IMG/VR virus record: IMGVR_UViG_3300030372_003986
Location: 1 to 60,553 of that record
Strand: one strand, 5' to 3'
From: a virus
Lineage: Duplodnaviria > Caudoviricetes
DNA: 60,553 nucleotides
The notes below the pieces were generated by a model. The model was not told the origin of the DNA and did not search any database. It was given only the letters and a program-made list of their open reading frames with translations. Below, piece by piece: positions 532 to 45,442 of this stretch (the stretch's first letter is position 1; the number at the start of each line of letters is the position of its first letter). The position numbers were made by a program, and so were the translations under genes.

Positions 532-767
532 AACATAAAAGTTTTATAAAACAACTCCGCTAATATAAAAAAACAAAAAATTAGTATTCCAATTAATAAA
601 GCATCTTGTAAAACATAGTTTTTCTGCCATTGTTTTCTACTTCTGCCTTGTCTGTATTTATTGTTCTCTTCAATTTCAGCGTCAATGTCTTTTGCAAACT
701 TATTTACTTTTCTAAAATATAAAGGTTGTTTATTTTTTACTTTCTTCCCCATACTATTCTTTATCAT
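528..767 (-). CDS. Small membrane protein
   Basis: C-terminal hydrophobic helix; coupled to groEL. Confidence 0.55.
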   Translation of the reverse strand: MIKNSMGKKVKNKQPLYFRKVNKFAKDIDAEIEENNKYRQGRSRKQWQKNYVLQDALLIGILIFCFFILAELFYKTFML

Positions 768-2361
768 AACTACGAGCCATAGTTACTATAGCATTAGTAG
801 ATAATATTGTTACTGCTACAGATACTGCGTTTTGTAATGCTTGTCTTGTAACTTTTACAGGGTCTATTACTCCCATTGACATTAAGTATCCATATTTCTC
901 ATTCTTTACATCATAGCCATATTGTTGACCTTTTGCATTCTCATATATTATCGAAGCATCTTTACCTGCATTTAATAATATTTGATATAAAGGAGCCTTT
1001 AATGCAGCAGCTAAAATTGCGTAAGCAATTTTTTTAGAAATATTCTTTTCTTCTTTTGCTTTTATCTCATATGCTTTATGATGGTGGTATAAAGTTAATC
1101 CACCACCCGGCAAGATGCCTTCTTCAAGAGCAGACCTTACTGCACATACTGCATCGTCTACTCGGTCATATAATTCTTTTTGCTCAAGGTCAGTATTACC
1201 TCCAACATATACAACACCTATACCTCCGCATAAAGATGCTATTCTTTGATTAATAAAATCTTTTTCAGTTTTGGTCTTAGTATTTTCAAATGCTTCTTGT
1301 AATTCCGACACACGATTTTGAATTTCCTCTCCGGTTTCACCTTCATCTTTAACGATGACCGTTGAGTCACGACTAACTATCACCTTAGCACAATGACCCA
1401 AATCGTTGAAATTAATCAAACTCAAGTCATCGCCTGTTTTCTCGGAATAATAAGTAGCACCTACACTAATAGCTATATCTTGCATTAACTCGTGCTGACG
1501 ATAACCAAAGTCAGGAGGATTTATAGTACATACTTTTAATCCATTCTTCAATACGTTAGCCGCAAGAGTGTTTACAAGATTACCTGAACAAGGTGCTATC
1601 ATTAATAGTTTTTTACCTTCATTAATAATAGGTTTTAAAATATTTTCAATTTGTAAGATGTTGGTAATCTCTGTGTCACATACCAATACATAAGTGTCTT
1701 CAAGGACACACTCATCTCTTTTTTGGTCATTGATAAATAAAGTAGATGCATAACCTCTTTTTATTTTCAAACCTTTAGTAGTTTCATAAAAGGTTTTTGA
1801 AGTTTTACTTTTTTCTACCGTTACTATTCCATCTTCACCAACACTTTCGTGGACATTAGCAATGATGTCTCCAATCTCTTTATCATTGTTAGCTGAAATA
1901 ATGGCTACATCTCTTAACCTTTTATCGTCTAACTTTTTGCCTTTCGCTTTTAATTTATGAGCAATGTCTTTCGTCTCGTCAACTAAATGTCGTAACACTT
2001 CAGTTCGATTGGTTTCCTCACCAATTAATTCTGTACCTGCATCCACTAATGCTTCAGCTAACACAATAGCCGTAGTAGTTCCATCACCGGCTGAAGATGC
2101 AGTTCTGTCTGCCGCTTCTTTCATCATCCTAACCGCAAGGTTTTCTACAGGGTCCATTAAAGAAATAGACTTAGCAACTGTTACACCATCTTTAGTAACT
2201 GTTATTCCGTGTAAGTGTTCAGGAGATTCTATTAAAACTGTATTACCACGTGGACCTAATGTTGACTTAACTGCGTTAGCAATTTTCTTTATACCATTTA
2301 TGAGTTTGTTTCTTCCTTCATTAGAGAAATGAAGTTCTTTTGGACTGAAGCCTTGTTGCAT
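754..2361 (-). CDS. groEL: Chaperonin GroEL
   Basis: TLGPRG, VTKDGVTVA, AGDGTTT, EEGILPGGG, GVIDPVKV motifs; no GGM tail. Confidence 0.98.
   Translation of the reverse strand: MQQGFSPKELHFSNEGRNKLINGIKKIANAVKSTLGPRGNTVLIESPEHLHGITVTKDGVTVAKSISLMDPVENLAVRMMKEAADRTASSAGDGTTTAIVLAEALVDAGTELIGEETNRTEVLRHLVDETKDIAHKLKAKGKKLDDKRLRDVAIISANNDKEIGDIIANVHESVGEDGIVTVEKSKTSKTFYETTKGLKIKRGYASTLFINDQKRDECVLEDTYVLVCDTEITNILQIENILKPIINEGKKLLMIAPCSGNLVNTLAANVLKNGLKVCTINPPDFGYRQHELMQDIAISVGATYYSEKTGDDLSLINFNDLGHCAKVIVSRDSTVIVKDEGETGEEIQNRVSELQEAFENTKTKTEKDFINQRIASLCGGIGVVYVGGNTDLEQKELYDRVDDAVCAVRSALEEGILPGGGLTLYHHHKAYEIKAKEEKNISKKIAYAILAAALKAPLYQILLNAGKDASIIYENAKGQQYGYDVKNEKYGYLMSMGVIDPVKVTRQALQNAVSVAVTILSTNAIVTMARSYDKE
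1694..1709. repeat. 16-bp palindrome, variant copy (GTGTCTTCAAGGACAC) inside groEL
   Basis: One mismatch to the dispersed motif. Confidence 0.7.
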
Positions 2362-2901: not shown

Positions 2902-3140
2902 ATCTCCAAGTTTATTTGTTCTGTACAAAGATACAAAAAATATATTAGATATATGGGGTCTTTGGGTTCCCCCCTATCACCGCAGCCGGACCCCCATTCG
3001 GAAACCGATATTTTTTTTTAGGGGGGGGTGATGTTTTCACCTGTTGGTTCCAATTTTTTTGGCTTTTTTTTCTACCTGTTGTACCCTGTACACATAGGTA
3101 GGTAGGTACTACCCTACTGCCCTCGTTACTACTGCTCTAC

Positions 3141-3191
3141 TTACCCTGTTAACCTTCCCTCGTTACCCTTCCCTCGTTACCCTCTTACCCT
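3141..3191. repeat. TTACCCT / CCTTCCCTCGTTAC tandem repeats; G4 motif on - strand
   Basis: 14-mer twice (3153-3180); CCC runs at 3144, 3157, 3166, 3171, 3180, 3188. Confidence 0.8.
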
Positions 3192-3216
3192 AAAGACAAG
3201 TATACATTAGTGTATA

Positions 3217-3487: not shown

Positions 3488-4219
3488 ATGGAACATTTAA
3501 TGCAAATTGAGGCAGATTTTTTATCATCTGCACAGGTTAGGTCAGAAGTTAATTTTGACACAATTTTTAATCTACAGTCAGCAGTTAGCGATGCGAAGAA
3601 GACGAAGTTCGAGAAATCTTTGAAGTTAGCGAAGTTGGTGTACAAATCGGTACAATGGTTCAACCTTGAATCAACCAAAGAATTATTAGAAGAGAATGGT
3701 ATCGAATGGACAAACACCGAAGTATTTTTTGAAACAGTATTTTGTTGGAAGAAGTCATTCGGATACAAGATGGTGAAGTGCGGTAAACTACAGGAGGAGC
3801 AATCTAATGTGGTAACGAAATTCAAAAGAAAGTGTACTCAAACCGAGAATAGCGGAGAGGATGCAAAGCGAAGTGTTGAAGCATTATTGAAGTTTGCGAA
3901 AGCGGAAGAGAATGGTGAAGAAACACAGGTAGCAAGAGAGAAAACGTATGCGACATTCAGCATATCGAAAGATGGTGTAAATGGTGAAAAAGGATACTCA
4001 ATGAGATTAACTGATAGCGGTATCTCTATCAATGGTGAGATAGCAATCGAAGGTGATGAGTTTAGCAATCACTTATACCACACATTCGAGATTATGAGAA
4101 GGATGATTGAAGTAGCATCAGATGATGAGATTTCTTCTTCTATCGTAGAGGAAGATGAGAGTTTTCAAGATGTAAGATTTGATGAATTACAAGAGGATAG
4201 AACGACAGGAATAGCATAA
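3488..4219 (+). CDS. Hypothetical early protein
   Basis: 243-aa ORF with A-rich leader; first gene of the + arm. Confidence 0.75.
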   Translation: MEHLMQIEADFLSSAQVRSEVNFDTIFNLQSAVSDAKKTKFEKSLKLAKLVYKSVQWFNLESTKELLEENGIEWTNTEVFFETVFCWKKSFGYKMVKCGKLQEEQSNVVTKFKRKCTQTENSGEDAKRSVEALLKFAKAEENGEETQVAREKTYATFSISKDGVNGEKGYSMRLTDSGISINGEIAIEGDEFSNHLYHTFEIMRRMIEVASDDEISSSIVEEDESFQDVRFDELQEDRTTGIA

Positions 4220-4248
4220 ACTAATAATAAACCAATAAAAACCACACA

Positions 4249-5280
4249 ATGAGAAATTTAAGAACAAATAGAGGTGTTACATTCGATAACTTGAATGACA
4301 CAAGTGATAGAGGAAGAGTAGTGTCTTACCACAGTAAACCACATCCTGTTAAAAGAACCAAAGCAACCAAGTTAGAGTTGAATGGGATTAAAAGAGAGGA
4401 TAGAAGAAACATCTTAATAGATGGTGAAGAAGTAGAGTCAAAATTCACTATTGGATTTGAGATTGAGAAAACACAATTGCATAGAGGATGCGTACAGGAA
4501 TACCCTTTATTCTGCGGATTTGAAACTGACTCTTCTTGCGGATATGAAGCAGTTACTCACGTGCTACCATTACTACCTAAGTCAGTATGGAGAACAAAGG
4601 TGTTTAATATGTTTCACGAGGCAACCAAAGTAATAGATGACAATTATTCACCAAGCAATTCAAGGTGCGGTGGTCACATTACTATCGGTGTTGAAGGGAT
4701 GGATGGTTCAGAGTTAATGTCAAGAATCAGAAAGTTCGTTCCCATTCTTTATGCAATATTCAGAAAAAGATTACACAATGGATATTGCTATGGTAACCCA
4801 CAATTAGTAGATGTAGATGAGGAAAGAGGTTTGAACAGTAACGTAGGAAAGTATAGTGTAGCATTGAACAAAGGATTCGGTGTAGAATTTAGATTACCTG
4901 CGAGAGTTACATCGGTTAAGCAAATGATTCGCAGATACGAGTTGTTTTATCACATAGTTGACTTTGCGGTCAATAGACCAAATGCTACTTACAATTCATT
5001 TATTAAAGCAATTAAGCCAATTCTACTATCAATGTATAATCAAGATGAAGAGAAAGTAGTTCAATTAATTGACCTGTCAACACATTTTAGAAAATTCATC
5101 TTTGGCGGAAGAGTAACCTACACAATAGTTGGATGGTTAGAAGGATGGTGGGCTAATAGAAGTAGAGATGGACTTGTTATAAGTCACCACAATCGTCAAT
5201 TGAAGCAGATGATTGCTCAAGATGGATATTCAGAGTGTATGAGGGTTTGGAGAAGTACCAACCAAGAGTTGATAAGTTAA
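4249..5280 (+). CDS. Putative amidoligase (COOH-NH2 ligase type 2, glutamine synthetase-like)
   Basis: TIGFEIE, DSSCGYE, CGGHITIG, VEFR motif order. Confidence 0.75.
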   Translation: MRNLRTNRGVTFDNLNDTSDRGRVVSYHSKPHPVKRTKATKLELNGIKREDRRNILIDGEEVESKFTIGFEIEKTQLHRGCVQEYPLFCGFETDSSCGYEAVTHVLPLLPKSVWRTKVFNMFHEATKVIDDNYSPSNSRCGGHITIGVEGMDGSELMSRIRKFVPILYAIFRKRLHNGYCYGNPQLVDVDEERGLNSNVGKYSVALNKGFGVEFRLPARVTSVKQMIRRYELFYHIVDFAVNRPNATYNSFIKAIKPILLSMYNQDEEKVVQLIDLSTHFRKFIFGGRVTYTIVGWLEGWWANRSRDGLVISHHNRQLKQMIAQDGYSECMRVWRSTNQELIS

Positions 5281-5293
5281 TAATGAGAGGGTA

Positions 5294-5309
5294 GTGTCTT
5301 CAAAGACAC
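5294..5309. repeat. 16-bp palindrome GTGTCTTCAAAGACAC (arms extend to GTAGTGTCTT/AAGACACTAC)
   Basis: Direct match, just upstream of hammerhead 1. Confidence 0.9.
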
Positions 5310-5314
5310 TACTC

Positions 5315-5368
5315 CCTGTCGACAGGTGTGTGCCTGTCCTGATGATGACTCAAAAGAGTCGAAACAGG
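5315..5368 (+). ncRNA. Type III hammerhead ribozyme 1
   Basis: CCUG-UC^ / stem I GACAGG-ugugug-CCUGUC / CUGAUGA / U + stem II GACUC-aaaa-GAGUC / GAAA-CAGG. Confidence 0.85.
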
Positions 5369-5390
5369 AATTAATAATAAAATAATAACA

Positions 5391-5609
5391 ATGAAAACAT
5401 TAAACATTATTCAAAACACAGCATTATCATTAATGACATTATTCGTGTGGTCAGCACTAATCAGAGTGGTAATACACATTCTAAAAACACATAACTTTCA
5501 ATGGATAGATATCTTATACTTAGGGTTTGTGTTTACGTTTATGGGATTCCTCTCTTATATGTTAGGATACATTTTAATCGGGGTATGGAGAGAGTCACTT
5601 AAAAAATAA
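5391..5609 (+). CDS. Small two-TM membrane protein
   Basis: Two hydrophobic segments; directly downstream of hammerhead 1. Confidence 0.65.
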   Translation: MKTLNIIQNTALSLMTLFVWSALIRVVIHILKTHNFQWIDILYLGFVFTFMGFLSYMLGYILIGVWRESLKK

Positions 5610-5692
5610 TCTCTCAAATGGCGGAGAGGGTTTGTGTGGTGCATCCCTCTCCTAACCATTTAATTAATAGCATCACACATAAATTTATAACT

Positions 5693-6046
5693 ATGGAAAA
5701 TCAAACAATCAAATACATCATAGATTTCAAATCGACATATGGAAACTATTCCACATTTGAAAAAGAGTTTACTAACGAAAACCATTTCAATAATTGGTAC
5801 GATTTAATGAGTCGTAAAGGACACAAAATAATTGGTGTGCATTTAACTAACGACCATTTCAAAACTGTACTTTATAACAGGATAGTAGACGAGATAAGTA
5901 AAATGTATTTCAATGGTTCATTCAATCCTGTTGAAGACATATTAGAGGACATAAAAGAAAAGAATCCTAACAATTTATATGTGAAGTGGGATGAAGTACA
6001 AAGTGAAGTTAGCAATCAAATTCAAACATTATTAAAAACTAAATAA
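5693..6046 (+). CDS. Hypothetical protein (likely start MENQT at 5693)
   Basis: A-rich leader before 5693; the upstream extension is a hairpin. Confidence 0.6.
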   Translation: MENQTIKYIIDFKSTYGNYSTFEKEFTNENHFNNWYDLMSRKGHKIIGVHLTNDHFKTVLYNRIVDEISKMYFNGSFNPVEDILEDIKEKNPNNLYVKWDEVQSEVSNQIQTLLKTK

Positions 6047-6047
6047 A

Positions 6048-6212
6048 ATGGAAAAGCAATATTACTTTCACGTTAGATATGCAGGGAAATTAATTGAAGT
6101 CGTAGCGGCTCACACTAAATGGGAGGCGATAGATAGAATCTACAATAAAAACATTGGAAGATTCGATTGGATTCTTCGAGAAAAATTTACTGCGGTCAGA
6201 AAAAAAAGATAA
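6048..6212 (+). CDS. Small hypothetical protein (54 aa, not in ORF track)
   Basis: MEKQYYFHVRYAGKLIEVVAAHTKWEAIDR..., 1 nt after the previous stop. Confidence 0.55.
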   Translation: MEKQYYFHVRYAGKLIEVVAAHTKWEAIDRIYNKNIGRFDWILREKFTAVRKKR

Positions 6213-6219
6213 AAAAAGA

Positions 6220-6251
6220 TTTGGATATGTCGAATTATTGTCGTATATTTG
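6220..6251 (+). promoter_or_regulatory. Bacteroidota-type promoter (TTTG...TATATTTG)
   Basis: -33/-7-like elements upstream of the GATase gene. Confidence 0.65.
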
Positions 6252-6276
6252 TCTAAATCAAACATTAACTAGGCGA

Positions 6277-6292
6277 GTGTCTTCAAAGACAC
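6277..6292. repeat. 16-bp palindrome between promoter and GATase start
   Basis: GTGTCTTCAAAGACAC in an operator-like position. Confidence 0.9.
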
Positions 6293-6313
6293 AAACCACA
6301 AACATCAAACATT

Positions 6314-7408
6314 ATGTGTGTAATTATTATTAAACAAAAAAATCAAATGATGCCACGAGAGGTGGCAAAAAATTCAGCACGAATCAATCCTCACGGATTA
6401 GGTGTTGTTTGGCTAGATACGTTTGAAGTAACGTATCACAAATCAAGTGAGTATAAAGTTATCATAACTGATAGACCATTCATTGCTCACTTTAGATATG
6501 CTACCATTGGTAAGGTCTGCAAAGAAAATACTCATCCATTTATATGTGGTGAGAACAAAGATGAGTTACTAATGATGAATGGAACAATCAAAGGGTATGG
6601 TAATAAGAATATGACCGATACCGAAGATTTAGCAATTCAACTTGGTAATACCAAAAGGAATTCTTGGAAGAAACAACTTGCGAAATTCGATGCAAGATTC
6701 GTTTCGGTTAATACCAAATTCAAAAACTTTCAAATCTACAATAGACATCTTTATACTTATAAGGATGGTATATGGTATTCAAAAACCAACGTCTTACAGG
6801 ACAACTTAATAGCAGTATATGGAACATTGAAAAAAGGATATGGTAACTACTATGGATATCTTTCTAACTCACAATATATAGGTGGTGGTAAGACCAAAGA
6901 CAAATACCCTTTAATCGTTAATGGCTTACCATATGTATTGGATGCGAAAGGTAAAGGTAAGAACGTGGTGGTAGATGTATTCAAAGTGTCGGATGCTCAA
7001 TTAAAGCGAATTGACAGTTTAGAATCTCATCCCCAATGGTATGTGAGAAAACAAATACCAATCAGCGTGAATGGTAAAACATTAACCTGTTGGTTGTATT
7101 TCAATAAAGAGGCAGAATTGTATTGGGATGGAACTAATCATAAAGAATCCTATGAGCAAGGATTTAGGTTTAGAACTCCAATCATTGAGGCAACAAAAGT
7201 AGAAGAGGTATTAGATACTCCATACGAATGTACTCAATACGATTTATTTGAGGATGATTTGGAACAGGAATTTAAGCCACAGGCGGAATCGCCTTTGTGT
7301 AAAGATACAAATTGTAATGAAGATTTAGTGTTTGATGGGTTTAACAACTTTTATTGTAGTGGGTGTGATACTTGGTATAGTGAGGAAGAGGTAATGAGTG
7401 TTAGTTAA
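6314..7408 (+). CDS. Class II glutamine amidotransferase fused to gamma-glutamylcyclotransferase (AIG2-like) and C-terminal Cys cluster
   Basis: N-terminal MC, NPHG, HFRYAT, ENTHPF, NG; then VYGTLKKG...IDSLE; C-terminal CxxxxC...CxxC. Confidence 0.85.
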   Translation: MCVIIIKQKNQMMPREVAKNSARINPHGLGVVWLDTFEVTYHKSSEYKVIITDRPFIAHFRYATIGKVCKENTHPFICGENKDELLMMNGTIKGYGNKNMTDTEDLAIQLGNTKRNSWKKQLAKFDARFVSVNTKFKNFQIYNRHLYTYKDGIWYSKTNVLQDNLIAVYGTLKKGYGNYYGYLSNSQYIGGGKTKDKYPLIVNGLPYVLDAKGKGKNVVVDVFKVSDAQLKRIDSLESHPQWYVRKQIPISVNGKTLTCWLYFNKEAELYWDGTNHKESYEQGFRFRTPIIEATKVEEVLDTPYECTQYDLFEDDLEQEFKPQAESPLCKDTNCNEDLVFDGFNNFYCSGCDTWYSEEEVMSVS

Positions 7409-7423
7409 ACGGCAGAAAAGAGA

Positions 7424-7439
7424 GTGTCTTCAAAGACAC
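7424..7439. repeat. 16-bp palindrome immediately upstream of hammerhead 2
   Basis: GTGTCTTCAAAGACAC. Confidence 0.9.
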
Positions 7440-7440
7440 T

Positions 7441-7495
7441 TTCCTGTCTATGAGTGGGTACTCATACTGATGAAGCCAAAAGGCAGAAACAGGAA
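7441..7495 (+). ncRNA. Type III hammerhead ribozyme 2
   Basis: UUCCUG-UC^ / stem I UAUGAGU-gggu-ACUCAUA / CUGAUGA / A-GCC-aaaa-GGC-A / GAAA-CAGGAA. Confidence 0.8.
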
Positions 7496-7516
7496 TTAAT
7501 AATAAAATTAAATAAA

Positions 7517-7738
7517 ATGGAAGAACAAACTAAATTTCAAAGATTAGCAGAATATCGAGTAAACAAAGCATTGAGAAATCTGCAAACAATAACTGACTTG
7601 TCGAGTCACACCACTTATACTAAGCAAGAGGCAGATAAAATCATTAATGCTTTACAGGATAAAATAGTAAAGATGAAGGATGAGTTTAAGTTAGGACTAA
7701 AACGAATTGAAAGAGGTGATAAACCATTTACTTTTTAA
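7517..7738 (+). CDS. Hypothetical protein (likely start MEEQT at 7517)
   Basis: KFQRLAEYRVNKAL helix; the track's upstream extension is the ribozyme. Confidence 0.65.
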   Translation: MEEQTKFQRLAEYRVNKALRNLQTITDLSSHTTYTKQEADKIINALQDKIVKMKDEFKLGLKRIERGDKPFTF

Positions 7739-7768
7739 TTACTAACCCAAATAATAAAATTAAATAAA

Positions 7769-8023
7769 ATGAAAAATTATAGTAAAAAAGAAATAGAAAA
7801 ATATTGGACTGACTTAATATCAAAACATTTAGTTGGTAAAAAAATAACAAAAGTAGAATACATTGGAGATGATGAAATGGATAAAAATATGTGGCATAAA
7901 CGACCAATAGCAATTTGTTTAGACAATAAACATTGGCTAGTACCTATGATGGATGATGAGGGAAATGATGGGGGAGCAATATCAACCACAATTTCAGAAC
8001 TACAAACAATACCTGTAATATAA
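7769..8023 (+). CDS. Hypothetical phage protein
   Basis: LVGKKITKVEY...DDEGNDGGA; A-rich leader. Confidence 0.7.
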   Translation: MKNYSKKEIEKYWTDLISKHLVGKKITKVEYIGDDEMDKNMWHKRPIAICLDNKHWLVPMMDDEGNDGGAISTTISELQTIPVI

Positions 8024-19835: not shown

Positions 19836-20262
19836 AACAAATAAAGATTTAACGAGAGAAAAAAAAGCAATTAAAAAATTTGTCAGCCGTTTCAATGGTA
19901 GCTTCAAAAAACTTGGAGACAATGATGTGGACTATAGAGTATATGATTCTTCCGGAAAATTAATTGCTTATGCTGAAGTAAAAGGAAGATATCGCACTAT
20001 TGCTTCTGCTTATCCTTTACCGGTAGCCGCAAGAAAGGTAGTGAAACTCTGTGATAAAAGACTTAACCCTGTACTTATTTGGTCTTGTGACGATGGCATC
20101 ATATATGGTAAACCCACACACCTTAAAGGTGTGGTTCGTTGGGGAGGAAGAAAGCCTCGTGAAGGAGCCGTAAACGATGAAGAGTTAATGATTTATTACG
20201 ACAAACAAGATGAGTTTAAGTATCATAAATATTATGATGGTGTCTTTGAAGACACTATTTAA
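19825..20262 (+). CDS. PD-(D/E)XK nuclease-fold protein (palindrome at 20240)
   Basis: VDY...YAEVKGR. Confidence 0.55.
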   Translation: MRFETNKDLTREKKAIKKFVSRFNGSFKKLGDNDVDYRVYDSSGKLIAYAEVKGRYRTIASAYPLPVAARKVVKLCDKRLNPVLIWSCDDGIIYGKPTHLKGVVRWGGRKPREGAVNDEELMIYYDKQDEFKYHKYYDGVFEDTI

Positions 20263-23200
20263 TACGATAAAGTTTTCCGTTTCTTTCTACGTAACCCATT
20301 GCCTCTAACCGTTCTCTTCTTCTTTCTCTTTGCTCTTTTCTTATCTCGTCTTGTCTCCCATACATTCTATCATATAGCTCAGGGTCATACCTTTTTAGGT
20401 CTGTTTTAGTTTTTATTCCTCCTATTGGCATTACTCCTTCTAAGTCTACACCTCGTTTGTTTCTCATTGCATCAGGTCGATAAGAAGGTGTTATCCCTAA
20501 GAAATCATACACATTATTATAATACTCTTTAGAAGAAGTGTCATTTCCAAACACACCATCTTGAATTGCATTATATAAACCAATAAAGGGGTCTACTTGT
20601 GCTCCCATTGCTAATTCCATAAGAGGTACCATATAGGTTTTAAACCACGCATCAGGGTCTTTGCGTTGTTGTTTTTGTATTTTACTTACAATAGCACTAA
20701 AAGGATTTACCACATCATCAACAGGTTTTTTATCGTCTCTTAAATAGTTTATTCCTTTTTCAGCAGCAGCTCCTAAGTATGGGATTTGATAGAGTAAATT
20801 TAATCCCATCATTGCATCTTTTATTCTTCTCATAAAAACTTCCTTGTCTTCATCATCTCCTTTAGTTAATAAAGCAATATTAGACACACCTACAAACAAT
20901 ACGTTAACTACTGCAGCGTTGAGATAGAAAGCTCTTACGTCTTGTTTTTTTGGGGTTTTCTTTTCCGCCAATGCTCGTGAAATATTAGTAAAGGATTGCA
21001 TTACTTTATTGATTTGCAAGAACAACGTACTCCCAAACATTGTAAATCCCTTAGAAAACATATCTCCTTTTAATTGTAAAGGAATTTTGTCCATATTTCT
21101 TCTTGACTGCTGAGTAGGATTGTACTCATTAAATTCTTCTAATGCTTGTGCTTCTGACATACCATTAGCAATATTACGCTTGTAATTAATATAATAACCC
21201 ATTACTCCCATAATATCTCCAATGATTGTTGGTCGTGCAGCAAGTGTTTTAAATGCTCGTTTACCTCTTTGGTATAAACCTGTTCCCTTACCGGCTTGTT
21301 TAAATGTTTGACTCCCGGATTCAAGACCATAGACATCACCCTCTAATCCTTCTTGGACACGCTTATCAAAAGTAGCAGACATTTTACGTGCTTTAGCAAT
21401 AGCTCCATTCATTCCTACTAAATCTTTACCCATTTCAAACAACACTCCTGCACCATCTACCATAAACATTGTAAAATCAATTGGACCTTGTAGTTTTTTT
21501 GGAATCTTTGAATCAGGTTTAAAATAATTATATTTTTCATAAGCATTCATAAACGATATTGCTTGTTTAAATATTTGGACTACTTTAAAAGCTAATGCAA
21601 ATGAGGTAAACTTCCTTTGCATATACTCGACAATAGTAGATTGCGTTCCGTCTACCTGTGCGGCAGATTGAGGGTTAATTTCCGCATTTATAATTAACTT
21701 GGTTAAAGACTTTAATCCTGAGACTTCAAGCAAAGCATTAACTGCCGGAATATTCATAAAAGCATTCATCTCTTGCACCCCTATAGCATATGCTTTATAG
21801 CGTTCCATAGTTTCCATATGGTTCATTAAGGTGTTAGAAAAAGTTCCCTCTTTCAAATTAATGTCACTCCCTAAGTCTGTTCTTTCTTTAAAAGCAGGTG
21901 CAGTATCTGCGGAAAATATTCCATTAAAGTTTCCTTCTTGTAGTAGTTTAGCATCTACTTTAGGAGCAATAGTTTTAGTAGGAAAATAGTTTTCTACAAA
22001 CCCTAAGTTTACTCCATTAGCCTGTCTATAAACGGAATTGATTTCATTAAAGTAATCTGTACTTAAATACCCAACCATTTTATCAGCAAAGGTGATAAGC
22101 TCCGTTCCTAAGTCTGATTTAATATCTGCTAATACTTTGTCAGTTATCCCTTGATTTAACAACTTAGCTCTTTGCACAGGGTTTTTACTTAACGCATATA
22201 TTCTTAATAATTGGTTAGCATTAAATTCTGACTTATATTTTCTTCCGGTTTTAGAAGTAATTAAATTTAATGTTTTAGTTTTTACTTTTCCTAACTTAGT
22301 AAAACCAAATCGTTGATTTAATAGTTTTTCTACTCCTTCAAATCCGTTTTCTATTCCTGACTGTTTAGCTATTTCATCAACTTTTCGTTTCATTAATCTT
22401 TGATTACTCAAAGCTAATTCGTGCATTCGTGCAAGTTTACGATAAACTTGGTCTGTAAAAACATTAAGTCCTTTTACTTTATTGTCTAAGAAATTAGTTA
22501 TAGTTCCTAAATTGGTAATTTGATTTTTAGCTCGTGTAATCATCCCTTCTGTTCTTCCAAAAAGGTTTTTAGTTATTACGTTATAAACTTTTGTAATTAT
22601 TCCCTTAGCAGTAAAATCTTTTTTAAGTTTTTCTAAATCTTGATTACGTTCATTCTTATCTTTTAAATTCCCATCTTCCGTAAATAAATCTGTATTAGTT
22701 TTTTGTATTTGTTCTGTAGCTTGTTCAGCAATTACTTGGTTGTCAGCAGCACGTTTAAGCCTTTCGTTATTAAACCTCATAATGGATTCGGTTTTTTCTC
22801 TCTTTATATCCTCAAGCAACTCTTGAACCTCTTCTAAAGTTTTATTTTGAATGTCTCCAAATGTATCATAAGCCATTTGTAATTGCATTAAGTTTTCTTC
22901 TAATGCAGTTAAGGTTTCTCCGTTTATACTTTTTTGAATAGCGGCATCCACAATACTACTCACTAAAACTTTTTCACCATTAAGCTCTACTGTTCCGGCT
23001 TCTAAATAAGTTTTAATCTCTTCTAATTTACGTGCTCTTACTTCAGGATTAACAATAGTAGCAGCATTTAATACTTTAGTTACATTTTTAAATATTACTT
23101 GTCCTAATGCATCAATACCTTTAGCTCGTGTTTTCTTAGATTGTAAACGAGGTTTAGCTTTAGCTTTAGCTAATTTTGCTATTTGTTCAATAGTGGAACG

Positions 23201-26200
23201 CTTTTCTTTTGCACGTTGTTGTTCTACTATTTTTATAACCCTTTCTGTTTCTGCTTCTAAGTTGTCTTTTCTTACATCTATTCTATTTACGGAATTAATA
23301 AGACGTTGAATTTGAGCTTTAGTATATGCTTTAGATTCCGGTAAAGAAGCTCTAATAAAGTTTTTTAATCGAGTTATATAATCCTTTTGATTCTTTACCC
23401 CAATTCTATTTTCTCTAATAGCTCTCCTTATATCTGACATTTCTTGAGAAAATGCCCGTGTTCCACCTCTATATCCGAGTGTTTTATCTAAGTCAATTCT
23501 TAATTCTCTTTGTATTTGGTCTTGTTGTTTTTTATAGGTTGGATGATTTTTAATAAGCTCTTGTGCTTTTTGTCTAATTTCTCCAAAAGTTTTAACTCTT
23601 TTTAATCCTATAACATTACCCAATCCATCTGTTGCCCATTTATTTAATGCGACCTTTATATCATTAAACATTTGATAAGCCTCTTGAATACCACCTTCTA
23701 CTCTTGCAAATGCAGGAGGTAGTTCGGTAAACAAGTCTACTCGCACAGTCATAGCTTCATTTATATCCGCTACTTTGAAGCCTCTACCTTTTAATACTTG
23801 TTTAATAGATGAGTCTGAGAATCCATTTTTTCTTCCTATTTCAATTATTTCTGTCATTGAAAGGTCCGAACTAAATGCAGCTTCAGGATTTTTTAGATTC
23901 TTTAATTGCTTATCACTTAACTTAACTTCTTTTCCGGCAAAAATATCAGCGAGTGCTGAACCAATAAATTCATCAAGTGTTAAATTTTGTATTTCTTCTT
24001 CCGTTAAATCTTTAGTTTGTTTGAACTGTGATTTAATAAACTTCCACATTCCAAGCAACCACTCTTTGAATTTAGATTTTATTGATGCATCTGCAATGGT
24101 CTGCCCTTTGTTTCCAATAAGGATTGCCATTGTTTCATTTGCCGCTTTCTTTTTATCGCCTTTAAATTTCTTTAGTTGTTTTTGATACTCTTCTGTTTGC
24201 TCTACAAGAGCAACACCTTTTGCATAAATGTTTCTACCTTTCCTTGTGGTCTGCAAATAATCCGTCCAAACGTGACCCATCTCGTGAATAGCAGTATTAT
24301 GTAAGGCGGAAGTAGAATTGTGTACGTCAGGATTAATATAGATGTCTCCGTCAACTGTAACACCATATATAACCTCATTACCTTTACGATACTTAACTAC
24401 ATTATCTTGTTCAATTACAGTATTAAAAGTTTGTTGGTCCGTGCTAATATTTACACTTGGAAATGCAATATTCATAAACGATGTCAACTTACTTACGTTA
24501 TCCATATCTCCAAAGGAAATAGCTGCGATAAACTCATTAGCAGGAAGACCGTTTTGAACTCCTAATGTTTCAGTTAATATAGAGCCTACACTCGAAGCAT
24601 CTAACTCTCCGATTTGAGGCATTGTTTCTTTTTGTTCCTCAGTTGCTCTTTGTCTTTTGGCTGCGGTTACTGTTCTTCCTTTTGATTCATCAGCTACTAA
24701 TCCTGCCATTGCTTTTTTATACGCTTCCGGATAAGCTCTAACAAGTGAAATAGGATTTTCTAATATTCCTATAGACTTACCTTTTACACCATATGGATAA
24801 TTAGGATGTACTGCTTCTATCACTTCAGGATTCAAAACATCTATTCCTTGAATTGAAATAATGCTTCTTTGTTTAACATTTTTTAATCCCGGCTCTGTAA
24901 TTAAATCAGTAATAGGAGCAAGGTGTACAAGACTAATAGCGTCTTTACTCATTCCTTCAATCAATATTTTAGGAATACGTTTTCTCCCTGCATTTATTTT
25001 AATTTGAGTTCCTGCTCTATTAGGTTGACCAAAAGTTAGTCTTTCAAGGAAATTTCTACGAGCAGGTAAACTAAGTTTAGATAAAAACTCTTCCGTTACT
25101 ACATCATCTATTAACTCAGGTTGTGCATCTTCAATAGCTTGTAGTGCACTTTTTAATCCGGCTATTTCTTTAGCATAATTTTTCTCAGTTGTTTTTGTTT
25201 TTTGTCCTGAATCTATTGCATCTTGTCTTGTTTTAATACGTTCACGTAAATCTTCTTCAAGAACTTGTACTGCTTTTCTACGATTTTCTTCAGGAATTTT
25301 AGATAAATTATCTCTAAACACCCTAAAGGTTGCTTCATTAGAAAGTATAGAACCTTCTCCCATTTTAACAATTGGCATTGGAACTAAACCATTATATTGA
25401 GGATTATCTTTCCACCATTGCTCAAAGAACTCTTTATTGTCTTGATAAATTTTAACGGCTTTTTCTTTTAGGTCATTAGCTTCTTTTTCAGTAGTGTTTG
25501 CCCACGCAGCATTTTCATTATCTATAGTTCCTGTAAACCCTATACCACCACGTAAATTATCAATAATATTTCCGGTTTGAGGATTAACTACTTGTCCTGT
25601 TGTTAATTGGTCCGAAATACTAAATACCACCGGCACTCCTTTTATAACCGCTAAAGATTTTAATTTAGGAATAGGTCGGTCTGTTCGAGTATTTATTTCG
25701 TCTACATCAATAGTTACGTCTTCCTGCGTCTCATCCATTGTGGTTAAGACGTTCCCTGACTCTAAATTATTAATAGCTGCAGTCACTTCAGCTACCTCAT
25801 CTACATCCGCCTCAAACTTATTGTCAGTTTTAAAATCTACTTTCCCTTCTTTAGCATCTTTTTTAATCTGAGCCTTCTCTGCTTTTGCTTCTCTTTTTGC
25901 TTCAGCTATATCTTCTTTAAGAGAATTTATTTCTGCTTTTGCGTCTTCTCTTAGGTCTGCCTTCTCTGCTTTTGTTAACCCTTTCTTTTTTAGACTGTTT
26001 TTTAAATCTGCTTTAACACCTGCTATTTCATTATTTAACTCTTCTAATTTTCCGCTTAATTCCGCATCCACTTCCGTAAGCATAGCGTCTATGTTTACCT
26101 CCTCTGTAGCCACCTCTTCTGTAACAACTTCTTGTGGAGCAGAAAGTGTTGCTTCCAAGTCTGCAACTTCATCTTGTAGTGTCTTTGAAGACACAATTTC

Positions 26201-29200
26201 ATCAATTCTTGATTGGTTCTTTTCTGCAACTTTTTGTTGGAATGGAGTTAGTTTTTTATTAGCTATTTGTTTATCCGCAATTCCGGCTAAGATACCATCA
26301 AGTCTTGTTTGTTCTATTGTCTCATTGTCAAACGCAGTTTTATCCGCTTTAGTTGGTCGTACAATGGGTTGAGGAATTACAACATCTTCAATAGTTTCTT
26401 CTTCTACTTTTGTTGTTTTAGTCAGCTCATCAGCAGCACGTTTAAGTGCACCTTCTTTTCCAACTACTTTTGAAACAATTGTCTCATTCTCTTGTGTTAC
26501 ATCAAATGTTCCATCGTTATTATCTATAAGAGTAAACCCTGTTTCCTCTCCTGTCTCGGTAACAATGTTATTGTTTTCATCTGTGGTTAACGGACCGCTT
26601 AACGTGATACCCTCCTGAGTGGTCGTAGGTTCTGTGGTTTGTTCTTCCGAAACCTCCCGTACCGTTTCTTCCACCGTTTGTATATCTCCGGTTTGTTTAT
26701 CCGCATCCACTTCTCTTGTTTTTCGCTTTGAAATGGCATTTTCTACTTTTTTACTTAATACTTCAGTTATTGATTCATCGTTGTCTACGACAATTTTTCT
26801 TTTATATAATTCATCATCAGACATATCATTAATACGTCTTAAAAATTTATTACGAGCATACGATATTCCGTCAATTGTATATGACGCTTTTGCAGTTTCT
26901 CTAATATCTGTATCAGAAGTTTGACGATTAAGAGAAATACCACCGAGAAAAGTTTGGAATCCTTTTTCAAAAGTATTTCCTTCTTCTTGTGCTTCAGGTC
27001 TTACGTTTCCTGTTTCCGCTATTTCTTGTAGCTCTTGATTAATTTCTTTTAGTTTGTTTTTGAAAACATTTTTTCTATTAGGTGTAGATGAAAGCTCTTC
27101 TTTAGCAGCCATAAGCTCCATCGTTCTACTCATAACTTTTTGGCTTTTTTTCACATCAGGATTAGCTGACAATACATTGTCGGCATCTCTCATTAAACCA
27201 ATGTTTTCTTGAATACGTTGATTAGCAGCCGGAGTGATTTGTCCTAATCTCTCCATATTATTTGCCCACGCTGACACCCTTCCAAGTGAAGGCTTAAACA
27301 CTCCTTTGGTTTCATTAAGAAGTCCATTTATCGTGGTTAAATCATTAGCAACTTTCAAGTTGTTTTGCATCTTTAAATCTAATGCCATATTAAAAGAAGC
27401 CATTGGACCATTAGCTCCCACGCTACCCATCATTTCTGCAAAAATCTCTTTATATTGTAGTTCATCACCAACATTTATTTGAGCCGCTAATTCTCCTGCT
27501 CCTTCAAACAGAGGGTCAATTACAAGTCGTTCTGTTGCAAAAGCTGCAACTCGTGTACCCAATGCAGAAGTTTTACCTACTTGAAATACTCTACCTGCAA
27601 TTCCTGCAGAAATCAAATCAATTATCGCAATGGGAATACCTCTTGCAAAACCTCTTTCTCTACCTCTTGCCCAAACATTTTCATCCATAAATGCATCCTT
27701 TATGGAGTTAGGGTCGTTTATATCATATCCATAATAACGAGCCGCATCCATAACTTCATTGGTGTATTCTAAAGCTAAAGAAGTGGCTGAGAATCCTGTT
27801 CTTAATCCCCATCCTGTACCTATAATAGCACCTGCAGGTACAGTTACTTCCGCAAACGGACCCCCTGCTAAACCTGTTAGAGCTCCTGTTCCTGCTCCGG
27901 CAGCCGTTGTACTTGAAATTATTTTCCACCCATAAGGTAGCATTTGAGACATACTGTTAGCTGCTAAACTTGTCATCAACTCAAGCGGATTGTCAGAATA
28001 AGCATCCCACGCTTCTACAAAACCTCGTGCTTGGTGCCAACGATATAATGCCCTACTCACTTTTCCGGTTTCTGCCTTATCCATATACCTTACTACCGCT
28101 TCTGCTATATCTGCTACCGATGCATCATCATCTAAATCTTCAAGACCTAATGATAATTTTAATATTTCATTTCCTACTTGTCCTCTATTCCAACCTCTTA
28201 TCCATTCATCGGAAACTCCTGCCCAATTTTCTACAAACTCCCCTCTAAGATTTTTATCAAATTTAGTATCAAGAAAAGTGTTAGCAATTTCATATTGATT
28301 AGCAGCAAGTTGAGCCACATCTTTACTTGCTTTATAAGTAGTAAGTAATGCATCTTTTTGTGGTTGCATATTTTCGGGAACCTCTGTGTTTACTAACTCA
28401 TCTATATCTACACCGAATAAACTAAGAGATTTGGTTTTTAATTCATTATCTACATATTTAGAAGCATTATTAACCATAATTGCTTTAGTGCCAAGAGCTT
28501 GATATTTTTTATCCATATAAACATCAAAATCTTCTCTTAATTCTTGCAAATCATCATCGGTATAAATACCACTCCATTCATCTGCTTGGTCATATAAAGC
28601 CTGTTGAACTTTATTAATATCGTTTCTTATCTGACCGGTTGCCGGGTCATACAAATCTTTGTATAACACTTTTTGCTCCGGCTCTAAATCGTTATATTTA
28701 AAAGGAGCTTTATCAATAAAATCTATTTTATCTTGAATAGATTGATATGTATCAAATTGTTCTTTTAAGGTTACATAATCGTATCCTTTCTCTTTAAAAT
28801 ACCTATCAGCTTCTGCATCGGAAGTATTAACATCTTTCCAATTTCCGGCAGCAAAAGCATTAGCCTCATCTTCTGTTTCAAAAACAAAAACCTCTCCTCT
28901 ATCTTTAGCAGTTGCATAAGCATCCATTCCACTTTTCTCCATCCAAAACTCAGGGTCTGAAGTATATGAACCTTCATACTTAGGAAATAAAGTAGGGTAA
29001 ACTACATTTTTACCATCTATAACTGCAGACTCAAATAAAACAGTAGACTCGGAACCATCTTCATTTTTTCTGCTTTTTTCTCTTAAATTTTGTGCACGTA
29101 AAGATGCTTGAATAAAATTGTCCTCAATGCTTTCTCTAACATCTTCAGGTTTACGAGCATACTTAGTAATAAAGTTTTGGAGCTTAATAGCTTCGTTTTT

Positions 29201-34287: not shown

Positions 34288-34303
34288 GTGTCTTCAAAGA
34301 CAC
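34288..34303. repeat. 16-bp palindrome (intergenic)
   Basis: GTGTCTTCAAAGACAC. Confidence 0.9.
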
Positions 34304-42413: not shown

Positions 42414-42451
42414 TGCTAAGTTCTTTAACTTTTGTCTTTACAAAGATAATC

Positions 42452-42487
42452 AAAAAAAAAGAGAGGATTGGAAAATCAACCCTCTCT
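42452..42487 (-). terminator. Putative intrinsic terminator
   Basis: GAGAGG...CCTCTC plus U9 on - strand. Confidence 0.65.
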
Positions 42488-42529
42488 CAATAATCCAAAC
42501 AAAAAGTTGTTTTGTCAATAAAACAATTC

Positions 42530-42772
42530 TTACGATACTGTTGTTATTGCTTGAGTTAAATTTACGTCAATAGTTGAGTCAGTATATGATTGTGCCCAAA
42601 CCTGAACCAAAGCTGCTTCAATAGCAATTTTATCTCCATCTTCAAAACTTCCTGAACCTGCAAGAACTATTTGCTTATCGTCATAGTTAAGAGTAATGTT
42701 TCCTGCATTTAAGCCTACATATACTACACTTCCTCCAAAAACGTAGTTGCCCATTATTAAAAATTTATTCAT
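42530..42772 (-). CDS. Small putative virion protein (possible paralog of 42785..43060)
   Basis: MNKF start and similar pattern to its neighbour. Confidence 0.6.
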   Translation of the reverse strand: MNKFLIMGNYVFGGSVVYVGLNAGNITLNYDDKQIVLAGSGSFEDGDKIAIEAALVQVWAQSYTDSTIDVNLTQAITTVS

Positions 42773-43893: not shown

Positions 43894-43919
43894 TTTAATT
43901 AAATTTAATTTTAAACAAT

Positions 43920-43952
43920 AAAAAGAGGGAGTGTCTTTAAAGACACCCCCAC
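43920..43952 (-). terminator. MCP terminator built on a perfect palindrome copy (43931-43946)
   Basis: - strand GGGGGTGTCTTTAAAGACACTCCCTCTTTTT. Confidence 0.7.
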
Positions 43953-43963
43953 TTTCTTACATA

Positions 43964-45442
43964 TTAATCTTCAAACATTACGAAGTTGTTTGCACCCATT
44001 GTACATACACATCTTTCTGATAAGAAGTGAACCTCCATAGCATCTAAGCTACTTGTAGCTGCACCACCTGCAGAACCTGTTATCCAAGTTTTGTATCTAC
44101 GGTCTTCAGTTTCAGAAGCTCTATATCTTACGTGAAGATAAGGTCTCTTAGCATTCTTACCTAATACTTGGTCATACACAGACGTTGAACCTGCAGGAAC
44201 TAATATACCATTAATGTGACCTGAAGACGCACCTGTAGCGTTTCCACCTCTCATTGTTGGGTCATTTAAGTATTTCCAATCAGTCTTATAGAAATCGTAC
44301 CCTCTTCGGAATCCTGAGAATCCTAAGTTAAGTGCCATTTCTTCATCATTATCAAATAAACCGAATGAAGTACCACCTGCTCCGTAAGAGTTTTGTGCTG
44401 CTAACATATCGTCTATAGCAAATCCAAATGCTCTGTCAACAAATAATACGTTTTCTTCAATAGCTCCTTGAGCATCAAGTCTTCCGATTATTGTGTCAAA
44501 ATCTGCAAGAGCATTAGGAATACCACCTGTCCATAGATTACCTCTATCTCCTACTACGTGGAAGATTCCTTCAGAACCTTTGTTACCATAATCAGGATTA
44601 AGAGTGTTATTAACAACACCTGAACCTGCTTCAGCCGGAACTGCTTCAACCATTGCAGTCTCAAGATAGTCGTCAAAACGTAATCTTGTTTCGTGCTCTG
44701 ATTTCATATACCAAAGATATCCTGTAGCTCCATTTTCAGTAGTTACTTCAACCCAACCAATTTGAGCCATATCAGAACCTGAAACTGAATATTTATCTTT
44801 AATAATGATTGGTGAGTTCTCAAATATGTAGTCATCAGACTCAAGAGAACCATCCATTCCATTTGTTCCTTTTCTAAATTCAGAACCATAAATCCAAACA
44901 GTAACATCTGCGTTACCTGCACCTGTACCTGCAGTTACAAGACCACCTGCTTCATAGAAAGCAACTGTGAACTGAATTGGCGAAGCAGTTAAGTCAACAT
45001 CAGTAATGATACCTTTGTTTTCTCCTGAACCATCATTTTGACTCACCACAACAGTTTGACCTTCTCTTAAAGCTATACCGCCTTGTGCGTCAAAAGGATT
45101 TTGACCTGTAGTAGGTTGTCCTGCCGGAGCTGCATCATCATTAACTTGGAAAACCGCTTCGTCATCAGCAGCCGCAGCAGCAGTACCTACTTGCGTATAC
45201 TTAACGTGCAGCCTACCTTGCTCTGCCCATTTTATTAAATCTGAATTAGAAGGAAGCTCTGCTCCTACTAATCTTAAAAAAGAACCTATTGTTCTGTTAC
45301 CATATCTTTCAAATTCTTTATCATATGTATCAGGAAGATACTGATTCAAGAAATCAAAATTGGTAATATAGTTTGTTGCCAACGGCACCTGTTGTGCTGA
45401 TGGCTGAAGGTCAAAACCGGGACCTGTAAAATTACCTGCCAT
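43964..45442 (-). CDS. Major capsid protein
   Basis: Portal-scaffold-MCP order, size, terminator behind it. Confidence 0.8.
   Translation of the reverse strand: MAGNFTGPGFDLQPSAQQVPLATNYITNFDFLNQYLPDTYDKEFERYGNRTIGSFLRLVGAELPSNSDLIKWAEQGRLHVKYTQVGTAAAAADDEAVFQVNDDAAPAGQPTTGQNPFDAQGGIALREGQTVVVSQNDGSGENKGIITDVDLTASPIQFTVAFYEAGGLVTAGTGAGNADVTVWIYGSEFRKGTNGMDGSLESDDYIFENSPIIIKDKYSVSGSDMAQIGWVEVTTENGATGYLWYMKSEHETRLRFDDYLETAMVEAVPAEAGSGVVNNTLNPDYGNKGSEGIFHVVGDRGNLWTGGIPNALADFDTIIGRLDAQGAIEENVLFVDRAFGFAIDDMLAAQNSYGAGGTSFGLFDNDEEMALNLGFSGFRRGYDFYKTDWKYLNDPTMRGGNATGASSGHINGILVPAGSTSVYDQVLGKNAKRPYLHVRYRASETEDRRYKTWITGSAGGAATSSLDAMEVHFLSERCVCTMGANNFVMFED

Follow-up and report, generated by a model that had tools for sequence, protein, structure and literature searches.

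The stretch of DNA analyzed here (hereafter the window) is a complete IMG/VR virus record of 60,553 bases with direct terminal repeats, in which a gene for GroEL and a long rightward early operon diverge from one another (Table 1). The GroEL and early operons are separated by a gene-free stretch (2940-3200), which contains C/G homopolymer runs at approximately 2960-3030 and 2.9 copies of a 14-base tandem repeat (CCCTCGTTACCCTT; 3144-3183), and may represent an origin or regulatory region. Farther into the window, positions 20255-30061 of the minus strand are occupied by a single ORF of 3,268 aa. A putative hammerhead ribozyme (hammerhead 1) sits in the 110-base gap between two genes of the early operon, ORF 4249-5280 and ORF 5391-5609, and a second hammerhead (hammerhead 2) follows the gene at 6314-7408. 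A megablast search of positions 4249-7800 against GenBank phages returned no match.

The gene upstream of hammerhead 1 (4249-5280) had been called an amidoligase in an earlier note that was made from the sequence alone. Its product had no match in Pfam or PHROG and has 887 homologs, none of which carries a name, and a search of PDB sequences with the family profile returned nothing (best E 0.22). In a Foldseek search with an AlphaFold (AF2) model of the protein (pLDDT 82.3), the top matches were all chains of glutamine synthetase, GmaS (gamma-glutamylmethylamide synthetase), or YbdK, and these matches are weak (E from 9e-4, TM 0.25-0.33). The modeled structure suggests that the product possibly has a glutamine-synthetase-like (amidoligase) fold. 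The amidoligase assignment is weakly supported by these matches; taken together with the neighboring gene at 6314-7408, it is a reasonable but unproven label. The N-terminal part of the product of that neighboring gene matched GATase_4 (1.2e-4; 21.5 bits, cutoff 23) and GATase_6 (4e-4; 20.8 bits, cutoff 27), in both cases under the Pfam gathering cutoffs. The gene lies near that of the possible glutamine-synthetase-like ligase and is kept across the clade of related phages, and the two may form a small-molecule or peptide-modifying pair.

Table 1. Features at and around the two hammerheads, with positions in the window.
Feature	Position	Strand	Basis or remark
GroEL gene	754-2361	-	Pfam/PHROG searches
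Rightward early operon, long run of genes	from 3488 onward	+	
Upstream gene, 343 aa, conserved phage protein of unnamed family	4249-5280	+	ORF list
11-bp hairpin, GUGUC/GACAC core, UCAA tetraloop	5289-5314	+	Constrained fold
Hammerhead 1, type III, extra U at 5346	5315-5368	+	Sequence, fold, covariance model, descriptor; predicted cut C5320/G5321
Hammerhead 1 stem III, 5' strand CCUGU	5315-5319	+	
Hammerhead 1 C17	5320	+	GUC triplet, 5318-5320
Hammerhead 1 stem I, GACAGG/CCUGUC	5321-5326 with 5333-5338	+	
Hammerhead 1 loop I, UGUGUG	5327-5332	+	
Hammerhead 1 core, CUGAUGA	5339-5345	+	
Hammerhead 1 extra U, between A9 and stem II	5346	+	
Hammerhead 1 stem II, GACUC/GAGUC	5347-5351 with 5356-5360	+	
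Hammerhead 1 loop II, AAAA	5352-5355	+	
Hammerhead 1 GAAA	5361-5364	+	GAA, 5361-5363
Hammerhead 1 stem III, 3' strand ACAGG	5364-5368	+	A5364 pairs with U5319
Leader 1, 22 nt, unstructured, A/U-rich	5369-5390	+	
Downstream gene, 72 aa, no family (Pfam, PHROG)	5391-5609	+	ORF list
GUGUC hairpin core without hammerhead, 21 nt before ATG 6314	6277-6292	+	Hairpin-only intercistronic slot
Gamma-glutamyl cyclotransferase domain gene, N-terminal part class-II glutamine amidotransferase-like	6314-7408	+	Pfam GGACT 2.2e-20; PHROG 2520
GUGUC hairpin ahead of hammerhead 2	7422-7441	+	
Hammerhead 2, type III	7443-7493	+	R1 59.5 bits, E 1.8e-12; predicted cut after C7448
Leader 2, 23 nt, A/U	7494-7516	+	Before ATG 7517
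73-aa ORF after hammerhead 2, ATG 7517	7517-7738	+	

The elements of hammerhead 1 that had been read from the sequence in the earlier note are present base for base where they had been placed. These comprise the type III fold with its GUC triplet, CUGAUGA, and GAAA, the 6-bp stem I, the 5-bp stem II with its AAAA loop, stem III (CCUGU/ACAGG), and the one additional U between A9 and stem II. The consensus is matched at every core position, with C as H17. The pair G5347-C5360 (10.1/11.1) adjoins G12, and U5346 stands between G5347 and A9. When the 54 nt of hammerhead 1 are folded alone, the minimum free energy (MFE) structure is exactly the hammerhead three-way junction (-20.2 kcal/mol; z -3.44; 2 of 200 shuffles as stable), to which ViennaRNA adds a seventh stem I pair (U.G). 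Stems I and II are closed by loops in this fold and stem III is open, in agreement with the alignment to a covariance model, R1, that was built independently of the window. The identity of the element as a type III hammerhead is thus backed by its sequence and fold, by the independent covariance model, and by the comparative evidence given below.

Hammerhead 2 has a 7-bp stem I (UAUGAGU/ACUCAUA) that is wholly different from that of hammerhead 1 yet compensated, and a 3-bp stem II (GCC/GGC) with an AAAA loop; at 10.1/11.1, a mismatched A.A takes the place of the usual G10.1-C11.1. Alone, it also folds as a hammerhead (-13.5 kcal/mol). The two same-strand hammerheads are 2.1 kb apart, with four ORFs between them.

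Folding in context gave a different picture from folding of the isolated elements. The MFE fold of hammerhead 1 in its native context lacks stem III, and CCCUGUC is taken up by an extension of the upstream hairpin; a fold compatible with the hammerhead lies 0.6 kcal/mol higher and makes up approximately 4% of the ensemble. For hammerhead 2, the hammerhead-compatible fold in context is 4.4 kcal/mol worse and makes up approximately 0.08% of the ensemble. The energy model used for the context folds leaves out tertiary contacts, and the modeled preference against stem III could reflect either kinetic or regulated control of the ribozyme or simply an energy model that is blind to tertiary structure.

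A search for Rfam hammerhead families, which the earlier note had put forward as a check, was negative: no family attained its gathering score anywhere in the window, and at E <= 10 no hammerhead family matched in 5200-5480 or in the window as a whole. The sole local Rfam match, to RT-9 (17.3 bits, E 2.2), was attributed to chance. The gathering score of the type III family RF00008 (clan CL00010) is 48.5 bits. Among 20 related IMG/VR loci with the same stem III as hammerhead 1, RF00008 matched 15 at E <= 10, ten of them at full length with 37.4-49.2 bits, and a single locus (L063, 49.2 bits) was above the threshold. Canonical orthologs, which follow the orthologous gene in related contigs, scored 47.5 bits (L053), 45.6 bits (L019), and 42.2 bits (L015). 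The five loci without a match included both extra-U loci (L020 and L047), whose stem II, 'U + GACUC AAAA GAGUC', is identical to that of hammerhead 1. RF00008 thus misses hammerhead 1 because of the extra U inserted after A9. The RF00008 threshold is stringent for short phage forms, and Rfam thresholds pass over a recurrent extra-U variant of the hammerhead.

The covariance model R1 was derived from a scan of IMG/VR, a collection in which the window's own record is not present. The scan pattern (CCTGTC..CTGATGA..GAAACAGG), which fixes stem III and the core, gave 92 matches at 91 loci. A strict stem filter passed 41 of the 92 matches and rejected true hammerheads with a bulged stem I or a 2-bp stem II; eight of the 92 were dropped by eye as stem-less in coding-like sequence (L010, L011, L012, L036, L052, L068, L076, and L087). 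Sixteen canonical, non-identical IMG/VR matches, with no sequence from the window, constituted alignment A2 and the model R1; covariation in A2 is partly selected for by the stem filter and by the pattern that fixes stem III. A MAFFT alignment (A1) in which extra-U sequences were shifted by 3 columns was left out. When both strands of the 60,553 bp were searched with R1 with filters off, exactly two sites were identified, 7443-7493 and 5315-5368, the latter with 57.2 bits (E 6.4e-12), and the next best site scored 11.8 bits (E 0.93). The plus strand of the genome thus carries two hammerheads and the minus strand none. A strict descriptor, which called for H17, CUGANGA, and GAAA, for stems I, II, and III with minimum lengths of 5, 4, and 4 bp, respectively, and for no more than one inserted base ahead of stem II, matched once in the real window, at hammerhead 1, whereas 1 of 200 dinucleotide shuffles of the window had any match.

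The protein encoded by 4249-5280 identified seven related IMG/VR contigs (41-65% identity). A hammerhead lies directly after the ortholog of 4249-5280 in 6 of the 6 relatives with downstream DNA (the seventh, L100, stops at a contig edge and is outside this count), and another lies directly after the ortholog of 6314-7408 in 6 of 6 relatives. Each of the five relatives that were searched whole with R1 has 2-5 hammerheads within approximately 5 kb of the same operon. Gene maps of the relatives place other copies ahead of the first gene (4 contigs) and between ORFs that are small and not conserved.

Clade copies of the hammerhead were compiled in alignment A3 (25 copies, 23 distinct), which was aligned to the model and so leans towards the model structure. 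In A3, 93% of cells pair, stem I is 100% paired, and double compensatory changes are found in 6 of 6 pairs of stem I, 3 of 4 pairs of stem II, and 2 of 5 pairs of stem III. The covariation score was 0.78, whereas shuffles gave 0.24 and sliding of the partners gave no more than 0.13. The nucleotide before the predicted cut (position 17) is C in 13 copies, A in 8, U in 4, and G in none. GAAA is present in 25 of 25 copies and CUGAUGA in 23 of 25; the other two differ solely at N7, a known free position of the core. Conservation of the core together with covarying stems is the pattern that would be expected under selection for catalysis. Unlike the stems, the loops change little in sequence (UG.GUG in loop I of most copies and AAAA in loop II of approximately 20 of 25), which suggests a contact between loop I and loop II, of the tertiary kind that hammerheads need to be active at cellular Mg2+. 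A separate subclass of phage type III hammerheads was observed among IMG/VR loci (L014, L016, L017, L025, L030, L035, and others), in which stem II has 2 bp (e.g., GAUACCGC) and the stem I loop contains GGUA. The stem II element and the GGUA loop of this subclass could pair as a pseudoknot of the kind described in PMC3088659.

Two departures from the hammerhead consensus were evaluated against natural variation. Of the 45 distinct IMG/VR hammerheads with this stem III that remained once the eight stem-less matches had been dropped, 7 carry an extra U, and 2 an extra C, between A9 and a stem II closed by G...C. In the ortholog L097:5023, the identical extra-U stem II goes with a stem I that is changed but compensated, and it is found in two unrelated contigs (L047 and L058) as well. 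Judged by these sequence comparisons, the extra U is a recurrent natural variant. In the available text of PMC3705267, the (+) hammerhead of the viroid CChMVd is described with an extra A at the same position, replacement of which by U raises trans-cleavage 3-4-fold, and U is the best-tolerated extra residue between A9 and G10.1. The second departure concerns the pair 10.1/11.1, which is G-C in 10, U.U in 11, and A.A in 4 of the 25 clade copies; 14 of the 23 distinct copies are without G-C at this, the most conserved stem pair. U.U at 10.1/11.1 is a natural and active variant (PMC3088659), and in the portion of the text of that paper at hand no mention of A.A at this pair was found.

Each copy belongs to a fixed intercistronic module in which a stop codon is followed by a GUGUC/GACAC hairpin that abuts stem III, then by the hammerhead itself, an A/U leader of 18-28 nt, and an ATG. 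Both hammerheads of the window have a hairpin with the core GTGTCTTCAAAGACAC upstream and the same 23 bases (GAAACAGGAATTAATAATAAAAT) after, and the first 15 nt of leader 1 are the same as those of the leader following hammerhead 2. With the hammerhead enforced, the hairpin at 5289-5314 ends one base before stem III begins; its closing pair is U5299-A5304, positions 5301-5303 are CAA, and it has no U-tract. The A/U-rich, unstructured leaders had no Shine-Dalgarno match.

This arrangement is regular across the clade. In 21 of 22 distinct upstream contexts, a hairpin ends 0-1 nt before the hammerhead, and the mean folding energy is -14.0 kcal/mol upstream versus -0.75 kcal/mol for the 40 nt downstream. 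The core of the hairpin is kept across relatives as a sequence, beyond its structure. In 21 of 25 copies, the next ATG that opens an ORF of 40 aa or more lies 18-28 nt (median 20) past the end of the hammerhead, and in the remaining 4 no such ORF starts within 120 nt; the stop codon lies 27-39 nt ahead of the hammerhead in most copies. Among the broader set of IMG/VR hammerheads, a flush hairpin was identified in 37 of 59 distinct contexts, versus 12 of 177 upstream controls and 4 of 58 downstream controls.

The hairpin also occurs in intercistronic slots without a hammerhead, both in the window (Table 1) and in a more distant GenBank relative. This relative, MW202828.1 (L121), encodes an upstream protein that is 48% identical to that of the window and has the same GroEL and GGCT neighborhood, and both of its corresponding slots have only the GGUGUCGUUAACGACACC hairpin (slots 5540-5600 and 6815-6855, with the GGTGTCGTTAACGACACC hairpin alone). 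A search of MW202828.1 with R1 did not identify a hammerhead (best 10.8 bits, E 0.26). The slots of this relative are hairpin-only, and the ribozyme is therefore dispensable for the operon. From these sequence comparisons, the hairpin looks like a common punctuation mark to which the hammerhead is a lineage-specific addition. In MW202828.1, the counterpart of 4249-5280 is contained in one 574-aa CDS (locus 3817-5541) that may represent a fusion with a homolog of 3488-4219.

The 16-mer palindrome that forms the hairpin core (GTGTCTTCAAAGACAC) has 14 sites in the window with no more than 3 mismatches (1694, 3217, 5294, 6277, 7424, 10335, 12150, 13082, 16218, 20240, 26179, 34288, 43931, and 51101), versus 0.47 strand-matches expected. 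Several of these are inside long ORFs, such as the 3,268-aa ORF and the GroEL gene. A related form, AGTGTC-N6-GACACT, occurs 12-15 times in two relatives versus 0 for a control pattern. A steady orientation of the palindrome relative to genes, which would be a sign of a role in RNA, was not found among the window sites; orientation is mixed, and the site at 34288 lies antisense to the genes of its cluster. Away from gene junctions, the palindrome may act as a DNA site or as an RNA hairpin. Two minus-strand matches to the Rfam family L20_leader were noted at 42449-42558 and 43913-44021 (30.6 and 25.9 bits; gathering score 58.7), both of which are probably chance matches, and the second overlaps the palindrome variant at 43931.

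Collectively, we consider it likely that these observations as a whole are best explained by a functional type III hammerhead, set in an intercistronic module, that self-cleaves the RNA of the early operon. Its most likely function is probably that of cutting the early polycistronic mRNA by predicted self-cleavage. In the transcribed RNA, stems I, II, and III would assemble about the CUGAUGA/GAAA core, with self-cleavage between C5320 and G5321 in this copy and after C7448 in the second. Cleavage would be expected to occur co-transcriptionally and to yield shorter mRNAs from the polycistronic message. Upstream of the cut, the RNA would terminate in the hairpin and CCUGUC with a 2',3'-cyclic phosphate, which may constitute an exonuclease-protected 3' end; downstream of it, the RNA would carry a 5'-OH, followed by two tight hairpins and then the open leader. 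Translation and decay of the downstream gene would in this way be insulated from the upstream gene. Coaxial stacking of the flush hairpin on stem III, which is short at 5 bp, may in addition help that stem to form. In bacterial mRNA decay, hairpins block 3' exonucleases, and entry of RNase E/J depends on the 5' end. Because of these general rules, both pieces would be expected to be stabilized and neighboring cistrons to be uncoupled. Clustered hammerheads of prophages cleave in vitro within transcripts of approximately 2 kb, and the same processing role has been proposed for them (PMC3088659).

A broader version of this hypothesis takes the hairpin to be the general punctuation of the clade and the hammerhead to be a swappable add-on placed between hairpin and leader, with the hairpin acting as a part of the ribozyme by stacking on or competing with stem III and a factor that recognizes the hairpin timing cleavage. 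We regard this combination as doubtful. As a swappable add-on, the hammerhead would make the cut autonomous and the phage independent of host RNase; with a factor-timed hairpin, the module would be a natural, protein-gated ribozyme insulator.

Among the rival explanations, the first is that the ribozyme is regulated or deliberately slow, such that a GUGUC hairpin, perhaps bound by a phage or host factor, competes with or gates stem III and cleavage takes place only at a certain time or under certain conditions. The MFE fold in context, which hides the 5' strand of stem III and the cleavage site, is consistent with such gating, as are the sequence conservation of the hairpin core, its recurrence in the window (14 times, including within ORFs) and in two relatives (12-15 times, control 0), and the weakened 10.1/11.1 pairs in many clade copies. 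Regulated cleavage of slow phage variants has also been raised in the part of PMC3088659 available to us. However, among the contexts that were inspected, the extended alternative pairing is not kept in all relatives, and the modeled hairpin stops one base short of stem III and allows a hammerhead fold at a cost of just 0.6 kcal/mol for copy 1. Regulation of this kind is, in our view, unlikely.

Loss of catalysis through the extra U or the A.A mismatch would leave an inactive relic or a structural repeat, such as a protein site, a pause or terminator, or a recombination spot. This is compatible with the lack of an Rfam match, with an insertion that adjoins the core, and with the hairpin-only slots (6277 and MW202828.1), which show that a slot works without a ribozyme. 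Yet selection appears to be specific to catalytic positions (G17 in 0 of 25 copies, GAAA invariant, and core changes at N7 only) while the stems covary freely, and the extra-U stem II is retained alongside a changed, compensated stem I in L097:5023 and in the unrelated L047 and L058. Moreover, an extra U raised the rate over that with A in CChMVd (PMC3705267, available text). These observations make an inactive relic quite improbable.

The two hammerheads might instead act as a pair that excises the 2.1-kb segment 5321-7448, which a host ligase of the RtcB type would then circularize or splice. Two same-strand ribozymes do bracket four genes, and 5'-OH and 2',3'-cyclic-phosphate ends suit RtcB; the possibility of excision is also named in PMC3088659. 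However, circular or spliced products were sought and none were found according to the available text of the same source, and the 2-5 ribozymes of the relatives, at varying slots, fit simple punctuation better, so that we deem excision very improbable. Finally, a chance resemblance in an AT-rich intergenic spacer, for which the shortness of the motif could be cited (CTGATGA...GAAA alone occurs 6 times in the window versus 1.57 expected), is refuted by the covariance-model E-value (6e-12), the conservation of the slot in 6 of 6 relatives, and the single match of the full descriptor in the real window versus 1 of 200 shuffles with any, and is to be considered extremely unlikely.

The preferred reading, namely a functional hammerhead that cuts the early operon RNA, can be placed among previously described hammerheads. 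Hammerhead 1 shares with type III hammerheads of RF00008 the three-way junction, the CUGAUGA/GAAA core, A15.1-U16.1, and the GUC triplet. It differs from them by the U between A9 and G10.1 and in that it is encoded by a DNA phage and is intercistronic, rather than being part of a circular RNA replicon. With the extra-residue hammerheads (PMC3705267, available text), it has in common a residue between A9 and G10.1, where U is compatible with activity and faster than A, whereas the settings described there are viroid replication and retroelements, and the loops and stems are unrelated in sequence.

The closest likeness is to the prophage clusters of Perreault et al., 2011 (PMC3088659), in which, as far as the accessible text goes, several same-strand hammerheads are located between operon genes, the genes between them vary, U.U occurs at 10.1/11.1, and processing of long phage transcripts into gene- or operon-length mRNAs is proposed. 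The window likewise has two coding-strand copies around a short gene block, and relatives have 2-5 each. In contrast, the cleaving examples described there are from bacterial genomes or prophage regions (Clostridium scindens, Azorhizobium, and Agrobacterium), whereas the element described here belongs to an uncultured phage of approximately 60 kb with direct terminal repeats. Furthermore, all copies here are type III and are fused to a sequence-conserved flush hairpin and a fixed leader of 18-28 nt.

Phage intergenic hammerheads, their clustering at genes, the processing hypothesis, U.U at 10.1/11.1, and an extra nucleotide after A9 are all already published, so far as the available portions of these sources extend. 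The statement in the earlier note that the function of hammerheads in phages is largely unresolved agrees with what is accessible of PMC3088659 and PMC13725137. A literature search, the figures and supplements of the key paper aside, returned no description of a phage module of upstream hairpin and hammerhead. What may be new, in a modest way, is that the hairpin is conserved in sequence and abuts stem III, that the start codon follows at a fixed spacing, and that A.A occurs at 10.1/11.1. Hammerhead 1 is real, well supported, and ordinary, and it points to neither a new RNA class nor a new mechanism. It adds a well-documented natural case to the question of the role of hammerheads in phages, from a clade of uncultured phages of approximately 60 kb in which the same slots hold either a hairpin alone or a hairpin and a ribozyme. 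The geometry is regular (flush hairpin, approximately 20 nt to the start codon), and the idea of mRNA punctuation or insulation is therefore directly testable.

The proposed outcome also resembles that of two other systems, the RiboJ-type insulators and the RNase III sites of T7, in which a cut between cistrons yields a 3' hairpin and a defined, structured 5' end and uncouples neighboring genes. RiboJ is engineered and has its hairpin downstream of the ribozyme, and the intercistronic sites of T7 depend on the host enzyme RNase III, whereas the RNA is predicted to cut itself here. The element in the window is a member of neither group.
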